DNA of 64,000 bases from an uncultured Verrucomicrobiae bacterium. Lineage in GTDB: Bacteria; Chlamydiota; Chlamydiia; Chlamydiales; Rhabdochlamydiaceae. Location: positions 89,905 to 153,904 of the forward strand of contig CAWEXY010000010.1 of assembly GCA_963813135.1 (NCBI GenBank), given 5' to 3'. Of this stretch, positions 52,282 through 64,000 are shown one piece after another. The position numbers were made by a program, and so were the translations under genes. Position 1 is the stretch's first letter; each line of letters begins with the position of its first letter. Under the pieces are notes generated by a model, which made no database searches, was not told the DNA's origin, and saw only the letters and a program-made list of their open reading frames with translations.

Positions 52282-52551
52282 TGAAGGGCACCAGTAATAC
52301 GATCGGGCAATTGACCTGGACGTTCGCCAGCGGACTGAGACATCATCAGGTGTGCTCTTCTCGCTCCTCTATCTCGGCTTGTGTCGCATGTTCGGTTTCG
52401 TTGCCACGTCTCGACGGACCGAGTCCGAGCGGGACGTGGAAATCATGGTGCTCCGGCACCAGGTCCGTGTTCTCACACGCCAGCTTCACGGTCGTGCTAC
52501 GTATCGGCGAGCGGATCGCGCAATCTGCGATCGGGATTTTGGTGCCCTTCA
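52282..52551 (+). mobile_element. Internally deleted IS (rve/integrase-core, IS481/IS3-like) remnant with both terminal inverted repeats
   Basis: TGAAGGGCACCAGTAATACGATCG at the left end and CGATCGGGATTTTGGTGCCCTTCA at the right end. They enclose the N-terminus MLFSLLYL..RDVEIMVLRHQVRVL.RQ..DRA, typical of actinobacterial integrase-core transposases. Confidence 0.7.
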
Positions 52552-52590
52552 CCCAGGCTCTAGAGGTTGTCTGGCTTGGGGCCGCTCAGC

Positions 52591-53932
52591 TCACGACATC
52601 GTGTAGCGATCGATCCCTTGAGCGTCGCCCATGCCGCTGGCGGGAGCACATACGGCGCAACCTTCAGATCGCTCTACGTTTTGCACCACGATGCGATTCG
52701 CCAGGAGGTCATAACGGAAGAAAGGAACCACGGCCCGAACCCCAGTTACATAGGCGAGTACTTCAGTCATCGCCAGGCCAACCAGAACAGTGTTCAATGG
52801 CATTAAAGCTGGCTCGATCGTTCTATCCCGCGCATAACCTCGCTCCATCCGAATCGCGCGGTGCCGCGTCGGTCTCGAGATCTTCTGCCGCTTCGGCGAA
52901 GTCGATTTCGTCGGCGCATGCAAGGCACGGACCTCCAGCAGTGTAGAACGCAACTCGCCCGCCTATCTCAGGTCGATCATCCTCCTTATCAATTCCAACC
53001 CCAATATCGATGTAGGGAATGAGGTGCGCGGCAGCAAGTTCCGTAAGGACAAGTCGAGCTCCGTCGTTATCGACGCACCCGACTATGAGATCAACACTCG
53101 CGAGGGACTTCAGCGCATCCGAAGCTCGCAGATTGCCGACCGTCTGCAGTCGAAGATCTCGCCGCAAGCGACGGGCTTGCCGCAGAGCGACAGCAGTCTT
53201 CTTTCTGTGAAGAAGCGCGTCCCACCAAGTCGCTCCTGACAGACGTGGAAGGTTTGACCATTCAACGGTATCGTCATCGAGAAGTACTAGTTCCGCCACG
53301 CCGAGATGAGCAAGCTGCTGTGCAACTTGGCTGCCAGTCCCACCCAAACCCACAACAGCTACCTTCAAGGTCGATAGGCCCCTTTGGCCCTCCGCCCCAA
53401 GTGCTCGTATTTGTCGATCGTAGATGGTGGCAGCGGAGGTATTCGGCGCCTGGACGCTCCGCGCCCAGGGCGGAATTTTCACCCTCTCGCCGATGGGTCG
53501 AAGCTCAAGATCATCAAAGGAATCGCCATTCCAGGCTCGGCCGGCGTAGCCAGCGGTTCCGATCACAAGTGACCCAAAAGTTCGGCCCGGCAGCTTGTTG
53601 CAGAAGTATCGAGCGAATATTGGAAGTTGTAACTCGTCAAATTCCGAGAATCGCACGTCACCACGCGAGAAGGGATGTGTGTGCACCTCGACGAGACCGC
53701 AGCCGCTCCTCTTGATGTCGGCAAGACCATCAAGTTGTGCCGACTCTGTCAGCGTGAGTTCGCCGAACTCTCCGGCTGCCAGTTCCGACCTTTGGAATAT
53801 TCGTTGAGCTCGGAGCACCCAATTGCTGCCCGATTCGTGAACTGAAAGAAAGGCGGCCCCTTCTTCGGGCGACGACGCAAGAAGCTCTCTGGTAAGGGTC
53901 TCCAAGCTTTCTGCCGGAACTAGGAGTTGCAT
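52591..53932 (-). CDS. JAB/JAMM peptidase - ThiF/E1 adenylyltransferase fusion (BubCD-like), frameshift near 52860
   Basis: N-terminal EEG..EVHTHP..FSEFD (JAMM). Then YDRQ, VVGLGGTGS, DDDTVEWSNLPR, GCVDN and PCLAC. The shifted frame gives RGY..PLNTV..CAVC. The ATG overlaps the E2 stop (TAATG). Confidence 0.88.
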
Positions 53933-54336
53933 TAATTGCACCCCCGAGCCAAGAAAGACTCGACCGATGACACGTAGCCCACAAAGTTGTCGCCGCGCTG
54001 AGGATCCGAGGTGGCGCGCCAGGTCGACTGCCCGACAGCATCAATTAGGTGGAAAGAGACCAACAACCAACCGGGCATTCCCAGTGGAGCACCGTCACTG
54101 GCTGGCAATGGCGAGGCAGTCATCTGTAGGCCAACGGGCACAAGAAACCCATCGGGACCAATTGCTCGATAACCTGGCGGCACAATGACGGCGAGTGGCG
54201 TTCGAGCCAGGTTGTACAGTCCGGGCAGTAGATCTACTGACAGCTCAACTCGCTCCGGAATCCCGAGGCTCTGAGCATCGGGATAGACACAGACAATGTC
54301 CTGCCATTCCTCGGCTAGGCGTGGGTGCATGGTCAT
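53932..54336 (-). CDS. Prokaryotic E2/UBC-like protein (Prok-E2 family E, BubB-like)
   Basis: LPGLYN..+AVIVPPGY...PDGF and W...SFH...W...D pattern; it lies between the Ubl and E1 genes with coupled stop/start codons. Confidence 0.75.
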   Translation of the reverse strand: MTMHPRLAEEWQDIVCVYPDAQSLGIPERVELSVDLLPGLYNLARTPLAVIVPPGYRAIGPDGFLVPVGLQMTASPLPASDGAPLGMPGWLLVSFHLIDAVGQSTWRATSDPQRGDNFVGYVSSVESFLARGCN

Positions 54337-54566
54337 CCTCGGCGGAAGCGGACCGAGACGAAGAAATTGTCTCCTTCGTGAGGCCGAACCTCCTTTGTTG
54401 GCGGAATCGCCGTCTCCGAACCATCCGGCTCCTCCCTCACGAGCTTGTCCTTCTCAGGAATTCCAGCGAACGAGCGAAGCTCAGTCCCTGTGTACTCACG
54501 ATTTTGGAGGTCGTATGGCTTTCCTTCAATGGTTACCTGAATCGTGGACGTTGCGGTGGTGGTCAT
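54333..54566 (-). CDS. Ubiquitin-like (multi-ubiquitin domain) protein, 77 aa, C-terminal RRG (BubA-like)
   Basis: IQVTIEGKPY..YTGTELRSFAGI..L..E...I....V....GDNF matches the Multi_ubiq pattern. It has a GGAGG RBS, and its TGA overlaps the E2 ATG. Confidence 0.82.
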   Translation of the reverse strand: MTTTATSTIQVTIEGKPYDLQNREYTGTELRSFAGIPEKDKLVREEPDGSETAIPPTKEVRPHEGDNFFVSVRFRRG

Positions 54567-54578
54567 TTCTGTTGCCTC

Positions 54579-54593
54579 CGAACATGTGTTCGA
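54579..54593. promoter_or_regulatory. LexA SOS box (Gram-positive/actinobacterial type)
   Basis: CGAAC-ATGT-GTTCG(A); the minus strand reads TCGAACACATGTTCGG and abuts the Ubl RBS. Confidence 0.8.
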
Positions 54594-54644
54594 TACAGTT
54601 TCATCATGTTCTGGATAATAGTGTATCATGAAAGGGTGCTCACG

Positions 54645-55823
54645 GTGACAGGCGGAGGAACGGACCTCGGTCAGAGGCTGGCAAAGGCTCGTGACCAGGT
54701 CGGACTCACCCAAGAGGAGGTTGCGCTGCTGGTTCGTCAGCCCCGCCCCGTTATCTCGAACTGGGAACAGGGTGAACGTCTGCCAAATGAGCAACAGCTC
54801 AGCAAGCTCGCTGTTATCTATCGAATGCCCCTCGAGCATCTACTGGGCTCGATTGAACACCCTCGTGCTGAGTTTGAGCAGTTGTTCTTTCGAGATGCCG
54901 GCAACCGCCTCAATGGTGAGGCGAAGTATCAGATTCAGCGATTTCTAGGATTCTTGGATGATTATGGAGCGTTTCTAGCGGCGCTTGGTGAGCAACCAGG
55001 CCTGATGGAACCCCCCCTTGCATTGCGAGAGGGTCGTTATACAAAAGACGATGTCCGGCGAAAGGCTGAGGAGGCCCGCTCCTTCTTTCGGCTTGGAAAT
55101 GGTCCGGTTGGCGACCTCACTGCGTTGGCCGACATTTTTGGTATCTCCGTTTACCTTGCTCCATTGGGTCGCTCGCTCACGGACACCGTTTCCGGAGCTC
55201 ACTGATCCATCCAGAGGTCGGCTTCTCAGTGCTGATCAATGGTCAAACCACTCCGGGGAGGCGTCAATTCACCCTCGCCCATGAACTGGGACACGCGCTG
55301 TTCCACCGTGGTTCCGTGGAAGTCAGCTTCCCTGGGCGACGCGAGGCTAACGAGCGGTTTGCCGATGAGTTCGCGGGTGAATTTCCAGTACCCGCAGACA
55401 GTCTTCAGACGACGGTCGAGCACTTGAGGCTTGAAAGAGTCGCGGATCCCGAGACGGTCATCCACTTGCAGAGGTATTTCAACGTCTCATACGAGATGAT
55501 CCTTAATCGGCTCCGTTTTGCTGGACTCATGTCTAACAAGGAGTTTGAACAGTGTCGGAGCGTCCACCCGTCTACTTGGCCGAGCAGTTGGGATGCCGGA
55601 CTCACATTGATGAATGGATGCAGGACCCGGAACGATGGGGCCTGGGACGATACCCAAGACGGTTTCTTCGTCTTCTCAGACGAGCGTTTTCGGAGGAACT
55701 CATAACCGTCTCGGGTGCGGCAACGATGACGGCCTCGCGGTGGAGGACATTGAGGAACTTCTCCGAGATGTATCGATTACCTCCAACGGGAACGAATATG
55801 ACGACTTCGACGCCACCTCCTGA
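54645..55823 (+). CDS. XRE-family HTH fused to an ImmA/IrrE zinc metallopeptidase (three frameshifts)
   Basis: LGQRLAKARDQVGLTQEEVA..ISNWEQGERLP, then SVLIN..RRQFTLAHELGH..ERFADEFAGE and YFNVS. Confidence 0.88.
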
Positions 55824-56411
55824 GACCTTTCTTTCAACACACACCAACGCGATACTTCGCGGTTACAGGACAAATGGATCTGCTTGCAACCATTTGCTCG
55901 CGGCACCATTCGAGTTCCACGATTGGTCTTTGACGATGAAGACGATTTAACGGGTCCGCCCGACCTCCTAAGCGAGATCGGCGCTTCGGAGCAGTACTGG
56001 GCGAAGCGAGCCAGAGAGCGGAGGCAGCAGAATACTGGCTGCGCCTCGGCAATCTTCGGAGCAGAACTGTGAGCATCCCTAGTTGACATGGAACTTACAG
56101 AACTCGAGAGATACGCCGAACTTGTGAGTCGCAATGTGCAACAGCGCTTTCGACTCGCTGCCAAACTCGGACGTGGGGAAGCTGCAGTTATAGCCATCGC
56201 AGAGGAGCGCGAATGGGTCGCCGTCATAGACGACTGGGAGGGTCGGATGGTTCTTCAGGAACTCAGCCCATCGACGAGATCCATAACCACCCGCGACTTC
56301 CTCAGGGCTGCCGTATTTGAGCAGGTTATCGACACTGGTGCCGCTGGTAGAATTTATCGAGCGATGCTCGAGGCGGGTTATCGAGGACCTTCGAATCTTT
56401 CGTTGGACTGA
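55798..56411 (+). CDS. PIN-domain protein (DUF3368-like), frameshifted
   Basis: N-terminal ..PTRYFAVTGQMDLL..IRVPRLVF in shifted frames; C-terminal LGRGEAAVIAIAE....VIDD..GR. Confidence 0.72.
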
Positions 56412-56607: not shown

Positions 56608-57089
56608 ATGGTTGTGGTACCCAATGCCCCCGGTTCTGGCAATCCCCCCGCAGCCGGCGGCGCAGGGCTCCCATTCTGCGGGTTCAACCCGGCCTGGGCC
56701 AGCGAGCCGATCCTTTTGCAGGGGAAGGTTCAACAAGGACTACGGAGGGATCGTCCTCTTTGGGCCGTGTCCTCGATGTGGACATGGCGACGGATCAACC
56801 TGTTCATTCCGACCACCTGGGCGACGACGACGAGCATCGGTTCGCCCGGCGTTCACTTCGTCAGTGCGGCAGCTATGGGTATCCTCGGGCCCAGTCCACG
56901 AAGGGTCGTCCAGTGGCTTGGGCCTGACTAACGGAGCACGGACCTGAAGCGAGGGCGGGTGCGGTCGTCGAGATCGCCGTGTGCCGATGCGGCAAGGACC
57001 ACGAACACCAACCACCGTCGGGCAAGTCGGGCTGCGGTTTTTGGACCTATGTCCACTTGGAGAAGGGAACGATCCCCGGTGGCGAGTGA
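56608..57089 (+). CDS. Small Cys/His-rich putative metal-binding protein, frameshifted
   Basis: GPCPRCGH and VCRCGKDH..P.GKSGCG motifs across shifted frames; the stop overlaps the next start. Confidence 0.6.
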
Positions 57090-57693
57090 GCAGGACAAGG
57101 CCCTCTATTGGGCGGGGAAGGCCGCCGATGTGCACCACAACATGCTGGACACCGTCCAAGCCTCGGCCGGAAAGTGGCAAGCGGCGATCGCTGCGTTCCT
57201 CGGTGCCTATGCCACCGTCGGCTTCGTGGTGGGACGACCACGATCGCCTACCTTCCGCCGTCGGGATGGAAATACGTCATCTTGGCCGTGCTGGGATTGG
57301 CTGCCGCCATCGCCGTGGTCGCCGTGGTTACGCCAACCGGGCTGCCGAGGGGTTTCCCAAAGTGGAGCAGGACTTCCCCCTTACTGGACCCCAGATGGCA
57401 GCGAACGCGCTCGCCGGAGCCAAACAGTCACGCCGACTTCTCCGAAAGGCCGATCGTGGCTGCCGCAATTGCCGGTCGTCCTCGCCGTCTCGGGGTCCTT
57501 CGGCATATTGGCTTACGGACTTACCGCCTCTGCACCCGCACTGACTGCTCTCCTAACCACGCACTCCGCGTCGTACTGCGGAACACTGCAGACCAACAGT
57601 GATGGCACGGTGTCGCTACTGTTATCCAACGGGAAACAGGTTCGTGCCAAGGGTGGAACCATCACGATCGTCACCTCTTGCGGCGGATCGTGA
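57079..57693 (+). CDS. Hypothetical 3-TM membrane protein, frameshifted
   Basis: VQASAGKWQAAIAAFLG, further TM segments and a C-terminal YCGTL..VTSC domain. Confidence 0.6.
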   Translation: MASEQDKALYWAGKAADVHHNMLDTVQASAGKWQAAIAAFLGAYATVGFVVGRPRSPTFRRRDGNTSSWPCWDWLPPSPWSPWLRQPGCRGVSQSGAGLPPYWTPDGSERARRSQTVTPTSPKGRSWLPQLPVVLAVSGSFGILAYGLTASAPALTALLTTHSASYCGTLQTNSDGTVSLLLSNGKQVRAKGGTITIVTSCGGS

Positions 57694-57767: not shown

Positions 57768-59056
57768 CTATTGGTAGGTCAAGAGCTCCATGCGGTCAAA
57801 GGACAAGAGATCGGTGACCAAATGCTCAGATAAGTTCGCTTCTGTTTCCGGGCGAATATAGGGAACAACGCTCACGGTGAATGTGGCGCCGGGCTCAACC
57901 AACTTTCGGAGCTTCTCGGTGACAATGACCGTTTCGCTTATCCGGGTTAACTGATGCTCTGGGGCGCAGATCGAACGGGCGACGCCGGGTAGGGACCTCG
58001 CAGTGTCCTTCGTTGCCGGCACCCCCCGTGACCGAAAACCCAAAACGATCCGACGTAGCGGTTCTCGTCATCGGTAGGAGTCGCTCTGGACCGACCTCGG
58101 GATCTGTTCACAAACGAGCCGACCCTCGAAGCTAGCCCGTGAATGATCCAATCCGAAAAGCACCAGATCCGCCCTCTTGTACTCCTCGACAGGGCACTGC
58201 AATGTAACCGTCAACGGCCTTGATGCAACTTCGACCAATTTCGATCCTCCCTACCCCCGGTGTTCCCGAACTGGAGAACGCCGCGTACTGATATCCAGAG
58301 TGTAGCGATGTCGGAGCGTCTGTCCAACGTCGAAAGTGTCGGAAATCGACCAAGAGGCGTATCCAATGGCACCACGCCGACCCCGGCTCCGGGATGTGCT
58401 TTTGCTGCCAGAGGTACCAGATGCGATCGAGGTCGTGGTGTGATCGGGCCCAAAAGATCGGATCGAAGCTGCCAGTCGGATCATGTCCATCGTGCCGCCC
58501 ACCCAGACGTGAATCTGATTGTGTACCGACTCCAGTTCAGTCGTGAAATCCACGAAAATCGGCAGAGATCGATGATTGACGACACCCGCTCGGGCTTCGG
58601 CAACGTAGAAGATCTCCCGGCGTCCGATATGTGGTGTCGACTTGGGGAAGGCCTTGTCCTGTCATTGAGTCGTTCCTGGTACGCCCGTGAATCGGTGTTC
58701 AGAGCAGGGGGTTGTAGTGCAGTCACTCGAAGTGGGTTCCGTGGTATTCTGTGGGAGAGCCGCTGTGCCGACCGAGTCCCACCACGGCAAACTGGACGCT
58801 CGGTTCTTGATCGAGAAGATCTGCTCGTTACGTAGTAGGGGTATGCCCGGTGCCACGGCAAGAACAATGGGCTTCGGTGCATGTATGAAATCAGGAGGGG
58901 AGAGCTCCATGCTCTGCCGGCCCAGTGCTCATGGCCCTGTCGTCCGAGAGAGCGAGCATCTTCGAAATACCAGACCGCAAAGCTCGCGGTTTCTGCTGCC
59001 GTGAGGGCAGTGACGCTCTTCCGTGTCCGCATCAAGGCGGGAGTCGTCTTGCTCAC
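57768..59056 (-). CDS. Tyrosinase-family (type-3 copper) protein, heavily frameshifted
   Basis: RKSVTALT, H..PLFLPWHRAY, LPWWD, ESVHNQIHVWVGGTM, and AAFDPIFW..H..DRIWYLWQ in a shifted frame. Confidence 0.8.

Positions 59057-62400: not shown

Positions 62401-64000
<1,600 letters not shown>

Follow-up and report, generated by a model that had tools for sequence, protein, structure and literature searches.

Type I Bub systems, ubiquitination-like operons of bacteria, correspond to class 6e in the accessible part of PMC1779556. In the Citrobacter system, according to the available text of the preprint that describes it (10.1101/2024.11.21.623953), a crossover tyrosine of the E1 and a serine of the E2 carry the ubiquitin-like protein (Ubl) as oxyesters. 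The same text places CapH and CapP in 31% of the catalogued Bub operons and states that bubE is present in all of them, the latter because the published list was seeded on DUF6527, the BubE family. Here we describe a related locus in a 64,000-nucleotide stretch (the window) of contig CAWEXY010000010.1, part of an assembly referred to below as G000. Its three minus-strand genes, which encode a Ubl, an E2 and a fusion of a JAB domain with an E1, form a real tagging operon of the Bub kind, a variant that lacks BubE and stands back to back with a predicted toxin–antitoxin (TA) pair. We consider it likely that the module carries out Bub-type oxyester tagging, which would be reversed by the JAB domain and released by single-stranded DNA (ssDNA) or the SOS response, together with a PIN nuclease.

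The coordinates of the three genes and their coupling by ATGA and TAATG overlaps are as originally predicted, and the arrangement recurs widely. A search with the E2 gave 91 homologues at E 0.01 or better, of which 85 were aligned and six partial ones excluded; against representatives clustered at 50%, four matches under 1e-30 were followed by a gap to 6e-23, which marks a tight group. These homologues led to four genome and 41 metagenome loci, 44 after one (L045) was excluded as a false match, which fall into 28 clusters at 97% E2 identity and 20 at 80%; L077 is a further member. All 44 have the same E2 and, wherever the contig has room, an identical gene order, so the operon is not a chance assembly of open reading frames (ORFs). 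The closest relative, L001, comes from an Acidimicrobiaceae metagenome-assembled genome (MAG); its E2 is 84% identical, and the two loci share 79% nucleotide identity over 3.8 kb. The four relatives that carry a name are all Actinomycetota MAGs and all three proteins match Bub proteins best, which bears out the suggestion of an actinobacterial Bub-like system.

Of the profile searches proposed with the original prediction, only ThiF was strong, those for Multi_ubiq, Prok-E2_E and JAB staying under their cut-offs, and it is the folds that settle the identities. The E2 (positions 53932..54336, minus strand; 132–134 aa, with a second ATG at 54330 that is the start position in most relatives) matched Prok-E2_E at E 0.07, under the curated cut-off, and a single-sequence search of the PDB gave no match. 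Its structural model (pLDDT 95), however, has the UBC fold expected of an E2, with BubB (9eae_C) as the best match (Z 13.5, rmsd 2.5 over 119 residues; next match 9.9), which confirms the middle gene as E2-like (Prok-E2_E lineage). Profile alignments place D62 on BubB D299 and S94-x-H96 on S333-x-H335. These three residues are invariant in 86 of 86 E2s, so that a Ser/His/Asp set stands in place of the catalytic Cys, as in Type I Bub.

The Ubl gene (54333..54566, minus strand) codes for one beta-grasp domain of 77 aa with a free C-terminal Gly (RFRRG-stop). Multi_ubiq was matched at E 0.006, under the curated cut-off. With the model (pLDDT 81), the best Foldseek matches were BubA structures (E 1e-3 to 3e-3, TM 0.70–0.74); the top six structural matches were all bacterial multi-ubiquitin proteins of the BubA type, none with an E value as low as 0.001, and the model resembles BubA better than ThiS. 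The single domain with an exposed Gly, inferred at first from the letters alone, is thus upheld by the fold and by the relatives, since 39 of 42 related Ubls end in RRG-stop, which agrees with the conserved C-terminal Gly of Type I Bub. The exceptions are L034, which ends RRGY, L032, which has six extra residues, and L027, which ends TRG. The accompanying claim that the Ubl needs no maturation therefore holds for most copies, while a few would still need trimming.

A fusion of Ubl and E2, as in the BubAB protein of Type I Bub, was found in none of the 42 loci. Since one added base would fuse the two genes, a sequencing slip was considered as the origin of the split; it was rejected because none of the 42 is fused, their junctions vary, and all 85 full-length E2 homologues measure 129–147 aa in a search that spanned 73–235 aa. 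A further, weak search found no E2 homologue of greater length. Nor is the split a novelty or a difference from Type I Bub, as split genes appear in 31 Type I rows of Table S1 of the Bub preprint (10.1101/2024.11.21.623953; part 1 of 7). Among 57 distant E2s, ten are fused to a Ubl, and split and fused forms thus coexist.

The JAB-E1 gene (52591..53932, minus strand, with its start at 53932) joins a JAB domain to a ThiF/E1 domain. The predicted length of about 445 aa was nearly exact (about 446 aa), but the frame has to change once, near 52861, and without this change the open frame codes for 369 aa. At that point the window has one extra base relative to L001, whose gene is intact at 448 aa, and beyond it lie both the codon of the crossover Tyr, at 52836, and the second CxxC, at 52659. 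The JAMM residues E24, H84, H86, S96 and D99, the GxGxxG and both CxxC motifs are present in the window, as had been noted at first reading, and none of them varies in the 23 distinct relatives of full length. Pfam gave E 0.006 for JAB, under the curated cut-off, and 7e-31 for ThiF. Among PDB entries Citrobacter BubCD matched best (window fragment, E 2e-21; L001 protein, E 4e-24), with ThiF/MoeB proteins next at 1e-13. The ERGY motif aligns, after a two-residue offset of the chain, on the BubCD ERGY that contains Y370; this Tyr is kept in 23 of 23, and the crossover loop has a Tyr and no Cys, again as in Type I Bub. The E1 has no rhodanese domain. In an E1 tree with long branches, the family falls to one side of a branch that is modestly supported (91/75). 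A modelled complex of the L001 E1 with the window E2 scored 0.81 against 0.00 for the best control (the mark set for this score was attained by 116 of 157 solved pairs and two of 215 mismatched pairs), with at least 96% contact agreement between runs, a partner pLDDT of 91 and D62 in the interface; as a like complex has already been solved, the model shows likeness only. Asp62, Ser94 and His96 of the E2, taken with the crossover Tyr of the E1, therefore make an oxyester route likely, unlike that of Bil or CBASS.

BubE (PF20137, DUF6527) was matched by none of 64 downstream ORFs of the family loci and none of five window ORFs, in a search whose positive control matched; the 64 are drawn from 67 listed for loci where 500 bp or more were available, after the E1 itself and two duplicates had been dropped. 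Nor was PF20137 found in G000–G003 or G518, which are incomplete MAGs, and the copy in G004 belongs to a different operon, of Type II. Eight further Ubl/E2/JAB-E1 operons that lack BubE came from two samples of 401 actinobacterial genomes; in the seven whose E1 tails were compared, the crossover region holds a Tyr and there are two Cys clusters. The BubE-less branch is broad. The Type II Bub operon just mentioned (L046, on G004:C61), which includes BubE, shares its genome with family locus L004, and both G001 and G518 have, besides the first, a more distant operon without BubE (L085 and L078). In a sub-branch formed by L081, L082 and L085, the S-x-H histidine seems to be missing from the E2s (SLR/SRR) and the Ubls have no clear Gly end (DDNS in L082); their chemistry may differ.

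On the opposite strand, about 70 bp upstream of the operon, lies a gene for a fusion of an XRE-type helix-turn-helix (HTH) with an M78 (ImmA/IrrE) peptidase (54636..55823, plus strand; about 397 aa), with an FR motif at 54888 and HExxH at 55280. It is followed by a gene for a PIN-like protein of about 200 aa (55798..56411, plus strand), which overlaps its stop. The HTH-ImmA gene is present in 39 of 39 loci with room and the PIN gene in 31 of 31, a linkage that holds in 13 of 13 clusters at 80% E2 identity. The VapB52/RmrA-like fusion matches the RmrA, capH and capP models and, in the PDB, best 9vzy_A, which is VapB52 (E 1e-7); FR is kept in 20 of 21 copies and HExxH in 21 of 21. The PIN assignment (DUF3368/COG2405-like) is based on an Atlas score of 0.96, on DUF3368 matches to 13–36% of cluster members and on weak matches to PDC-S70. 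With HExxH, FR and a PIN gene downstream, the pair has the features of a predicted VapBC52-like module. The accessible passages of PMC13273310 report that VapB52 cleaves itself on ssDNA, probably at the FR motif, and that its PIN partner cleaves tRNA and gave M. smegmatis protection from phage D29 when overexpressed.

The shared divergent promoter of about 70 bp carries two candidate control elements. The first, an inverted repeat (TGnTACA-N24-nGTAnCR; 54591..54628), occurs in 28 of 28 distinct intergenic regions as TGnTACA, 24–25 bases and the complement, and a matrix built from these 28 finds it upstream of six of eight stand-alone HTH-ImmA/PIN pairs (each at most 1 in 200 shuffles). It thus goes along with the HTH-ImmA gene, for which it is the likely operator. 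Covariation of the arms (19 of 28, shuffle mean 10.2) ignores relatedness and is a hint only. The arms also resemble two face-to-face extended −10 elements, and some of the conservation could stem from this. The second is a LexA/SOS-type box, a GAAC-N4-GTTC palindrome (54578..54593) just upstream of the Ubl ribosome-binding site. It stands at one fixed place, exact in four of 28 regions, with at most one mismatch in ten and at most two in 19; an exact box was not found upstream of seven stand-alone pairs. The same box lies 67–364 bp upstream of lexA in four of four host genomes checked, and it fits the Streptomyces LexA consensus as given in the available part of PMC9380542. By this cognate box, the module is predicted to belong to the LexA regulon.

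Taken together, these features suggest how the five genes may work. The module would tag proteins with Ubl by Bub-type oxyester chemistry and would likely be switched on by DNA damage. By analogy with Citrobacter Bub, the E1 would adenylate the Ubl Gly, its crossover Tyr would take the Ubl as an oxyester, and Ser94 of the E2 would receive it and pass it to target lysines without an E3. The JAB domain would remove the tag, since there is no precursor to cut and no BubE; this role, which the original prediction had also proposed, is a reasonable inference that the missing BubE strengthens. On the model of CapP/CapH and VapB52, the HTH-ImmA protein would bind the inverted repeat and hold the PIN protein, until ssDNA induced its self-cleavage at the FR motif and so freed both the promoter and the PIN nuclease. 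Cleavage of LexA would lift a second block in most copies, and the probable outcome would be that proteins are tagged and growth stops while the cell faces phage infection or genotoxic stress.

Several observations weigh against this scheme. For the chemistry, the Citrobacter JAB domain appears not to remove conjugates and did not stop conjugation, which speaks against its acting as a deconjugase in that system, according to the available text of the preprint (10.1101/2024.11.21.623953), and in that text and the accessible parts of PMC13373217 no Bub operon has protected against phage. For the control, the SOS-type box is absent (6–7 mismatches) in nine of 28 regions, and its exact form in the window is weak taken there alone (9 of 100 shuffles). 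CapP and VapB52 are gated by a cysteine switch (C229 in the latter) that the fusions described here lack, with no Cys in the corresponding stretch after HExxH in 21 of 21, so the control by ssDNA may differ. The available passages on VapB52 (PMC13273310) do not describe promoter binding ('operator' has no match in them). For the effector, no Pfam or PDB profile matched the PIN protein, and its first acidic residue is Asn in 11 and Asp in nine of 20 Bub-linked copies (Asp in seven of seven stand-alone ones). As the loci were found via the E2 and are related, the linkage of the pair to the operon may be a single inherited event. Many of the neighbours scanned (83 of 116 large neighbouring ORFs) are neither defence nor mobility genes, and defence genes stand beside few loci only. 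Lastly, in comparison with L001, three of the five genes in the window (E1, HTH-ImmA and PIN) have broken frames.

It is possible, though we think it doubtful, that the HTH-ImmA and PIN genes are only a captured switch or addiction module that regulates or stabilises the island, with a PIN protein unlinked to tagging and maybe dead. The pair does occur without Bub genes, at nine loci in nine other genomes, and HTH-DUF955 proteins with COG2405 or DUF4411 PIN partners are predicted as a three-component TA type in the accessible part of PMC5499597. Besides the change from Asp to Asn in the PIN protein, four of the eight other BubE-less operons have plain ImmA (with or without HTH) genes and no such PIN. 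In a tree, the 15 Bub-linked fusions tested lie on one side of a branch (support 87/89), consistent with one capture. On the other hand, the PIN gene has been retained by all loci with room (31 of 31), at 37–53% identity to L001, about as conserved as JAB-E1, with E56, E124 and D141 invariant, and no pair of the Bub clade was met without the operon in 401 + 351 genomes, where only two copies were encountered. A captured switch would in any case alter the outcome and not the chemistry, and so is compatible with oxyester tagging. The stand-alone pairs of Acidimicrobiia (L087–L093), with DUF3368-like PIN proteins and a conserved TGTTAC-N23/25-GTAACA repeat upstream (in two copies in L090) as candidate operator, are in themselves a predicted VapBC52-like TA family that is as yet unstudied.

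A second alternative concerns the chemistry itself. The E2 ends with a penultimate Cys (C133) in 85 of 85 full-length homologues, and this Cys might act as a second acyl carrier, with the Ubl passing from the E1 Tyr to Ser94 and then to Cys133, or directly from Tyr to Cys133, to form a thioester before transfer. Its codon is TGC or TGT, and the upstream codons often lack a Shine–Dalgarno core; the residue is therefore not a by-product of the next gene's ribosome-binding site, and the constraint acts on the protein. A second Ubl-like Gly end was likewise rejected for the E2 tail, since only 50 of 86 have Gly at residue 132. The most likely place of Cys133 is the rim of the active site of the E2. 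In the structural comparison the match stops at model residue 134, equivalent to BubB 361, which would put Cys133 about two residues from K358 (judged from the range ends only), the lysine that accepts Ubl in vitro in the available text of the preprint (10.1101/2024.11.21.623953). The window E2 and 39 of 86 E2s overall contain no lysine. Yet Ser94, His96 and Asp62 are equally invariant and suffice in Citrobacter, the penultimate Cys is missing in all 57 distant E2s (P0149 ends in Cys) and in the close fragment P0092, and Cys133 is not named in the modelled E1–E2 interface, which the tool rates uncertain. A redox or metal-binding role would fit equally well, and we regard the relay as unlikely. 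Slightly more unlikely is a bolder scheme, a five-gene DNA-damage defence circuit in which a Tyr–Ser–Cys relay would place Ubl onto the PIN or HTH-ImmA protein, or onto phage proteins while PIN arrests the cell. If true, the relay from oxyester to thioester would be a third chemistry for E1/E2 cascades, and the circuit would give Bub pathways their first target and biological role.

The broken frames raise the question of whether the window copy is a decaying pseudo-operon in an otherwise functional family. Apart from the E1 break, they lie near 55199, 55563 and 55730 in the HTH-ImmA gene and at several points between 55835 and 56079 in the PIN gene. None of the compared contigs from other runs covers the E1 break, and a remnant of the N-terminus of an integrase-core transposase (52352–52606, plus strand; 59% over 58 aa to an rve_3 protein at L084) adjoins the E1 stop. 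However, unrelated genes of the same stretch are broken too (cydA and those for aldehyde dehydrogenase, NADH dehydrogenase and groEL, as labelled from ORF lists), every catalytic residue is intact, and the base missing at 55198 is present in one short contig of another run, weak evidence at a depth of two. The E1 frameshift is probably a sequencing error, and we hold decay to be improbable. As for a sulfur carrier or another non-conjugating ThiF/ThiS-like pathway, a ThiF/MoeB-type E1 with two CxxC motifs and best NCBIfam matches to ThiF/MoeB models (all under cut-off) is outweighed by the UBC-fold E2 with the BubB triad, the greater likeness of the Ubl to BubA than to ThiS, an E1 with neither crossover Cys nor rhodanese domain, and the lack of thiamine, molybdopterin or cysteine-synthesis genes, already remarked on at first reading, among the neighbours scanned, so that this pathway, judged unlikely from the start, can be set aside as very improbable.

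The origin of the DNA calls for caution. Within the contig, referred to as C10, GC content steps from 49% to 61% at about 40 kb, and the last 24 kb (window ~39800–64000) are tetranucleotide outliers with dense frameshifts and actinobacterial-type genes. An AfsK-type kinase gene lies in this end, LptF/LptG genes for LPS export in the first part, and the end carries a fourth, divergent groEL that is only 50–63% identical to the other three of G000. The E2 was not found in 40 relatives of G000 that were searched. The end is probably chimeric, actinobacterial DNA joined to an unrelated genome, and the module is therefore not to be credited to the organism of G000; the same applies to any other finding from window ~39800–64000. 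The groEL gene at 62774–63745 (plus strand) has an insertion that may be acidobacterial, and if so the tail may itself be mixed. Searches of viral contigs and of plasmids gave no match, and the listing of sequencing runs held no RNA run and five DNA runs, each with a small share. Beyond the PIN gene lie small unassigned ORFs (56612–57693) and, near them, a frameshifted tyrosinase-like gene (58251–59056, minus strand; weak PF00264 matches). Defence and mobility genes found near other loci comprise type I and ISP restriction (L032, L003), a BrxL–Schlafen protein (L031), SIR2 with RelA/SpoT (L028), integrases and IS elements. The SIR2 and RelA/SpoT pair lies at L028:3278–5648, the BrxL–Schlafen fusion at L031:1808–3793, an HsdR–Schlafen fusion at L032:8893–12702 and a dGTPase-like HD protein at L004:10199–11578.

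The variant is small, with a single-domain Ubl and no BubE, and brings along candidates for a trigger (ssDNA, SOS), an operator and an effector, so that the purpose of Bub tagging can be tested on it directly. Its make-up further suggests that tests of Bub in E. coli might fail for lack of the host, trigger or partner genes, and its invariant extra Cys permits a one-mutation test for new E2 chemistry. Annotation pipelines would miss such systems, since their proteins score below the Pfam cut-offs and PADLOC has no model for either the E2 or the Ubl. The original prediction had noted neither the Tyr/Ser chemistry nor the lack of BubE, the added E2 Cys, the pair of fixed divergent genes or their promoter. 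The core belongs to a characterised family, while for the toxin pairing and the extra Cys no report was found: a literature search that left most subscription journals outside returned none of a BubE-less, TA-coupled Bub operon or of the Cys, and the PDF supplement and journal version of the Bub preprint may mention such variants.

How, then, does the module compare with known systems? With Bil Type I/II (10.1101/2023.09.26.559546) and CBASS Cap2/Cap3 it shares Ubl, E1, E2 and JAB parts, but in the available descriptions these systems use cysteine thioesters and a separate JAB, with a multidomain E1 in Bil and an E2–E1 fusion and CD-NTase in CBASS. Here, by contrast, there is no E2 active-site Cys, no catalytic-Cys domain in the E1 and no separate JAB, the E2 stands alone, and no CD-NTase family was seen among the neighbours scanned. 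Like CapH and CapP in the accessible accounts, the divergent gene combines an HTH repressor with an M78 peptidase at a promoter shared with a ubiquitination-like operon, but as one fused protein with a toxin-like partner. VapBC52 (Rv2514c–Rv2515c; accessible part of PMC13273310) has the same HTH-M78 fusion of about 400 aa with FR and HExxH, followed by a PIN-like gene; the pair described here is distant from it (E 1e-7), has no cysteine switch and a longer, DUF3368-like PIN, often with Asn, and is fixed to a conjugation operon. The closest known system is Type I Bub (6E.1/DUF6527; BubAB/BubCD/BubE of Citrobacter sp. RHBSTW-00271; 10.1101/2024.11.21.623953, available text). In common are the Multi_ubiq-type Ubl, the Ser/His/Asp E2, the JAB-E1 with crossover Tyr, the gene order and divergent HTH/M78 control. 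The module differs in lacking BubE, in a zinc-type E1 with two CxxC (BubCD has PGGSTL at the first), in the penultimate E2 Cys, in the fused HTH-ImmA with PIN, in the LexA-type box and in a Ubl made mature. It would thus appear to work like Type I Bub, but as bubE is missing we do not file it as a plain member of that type.

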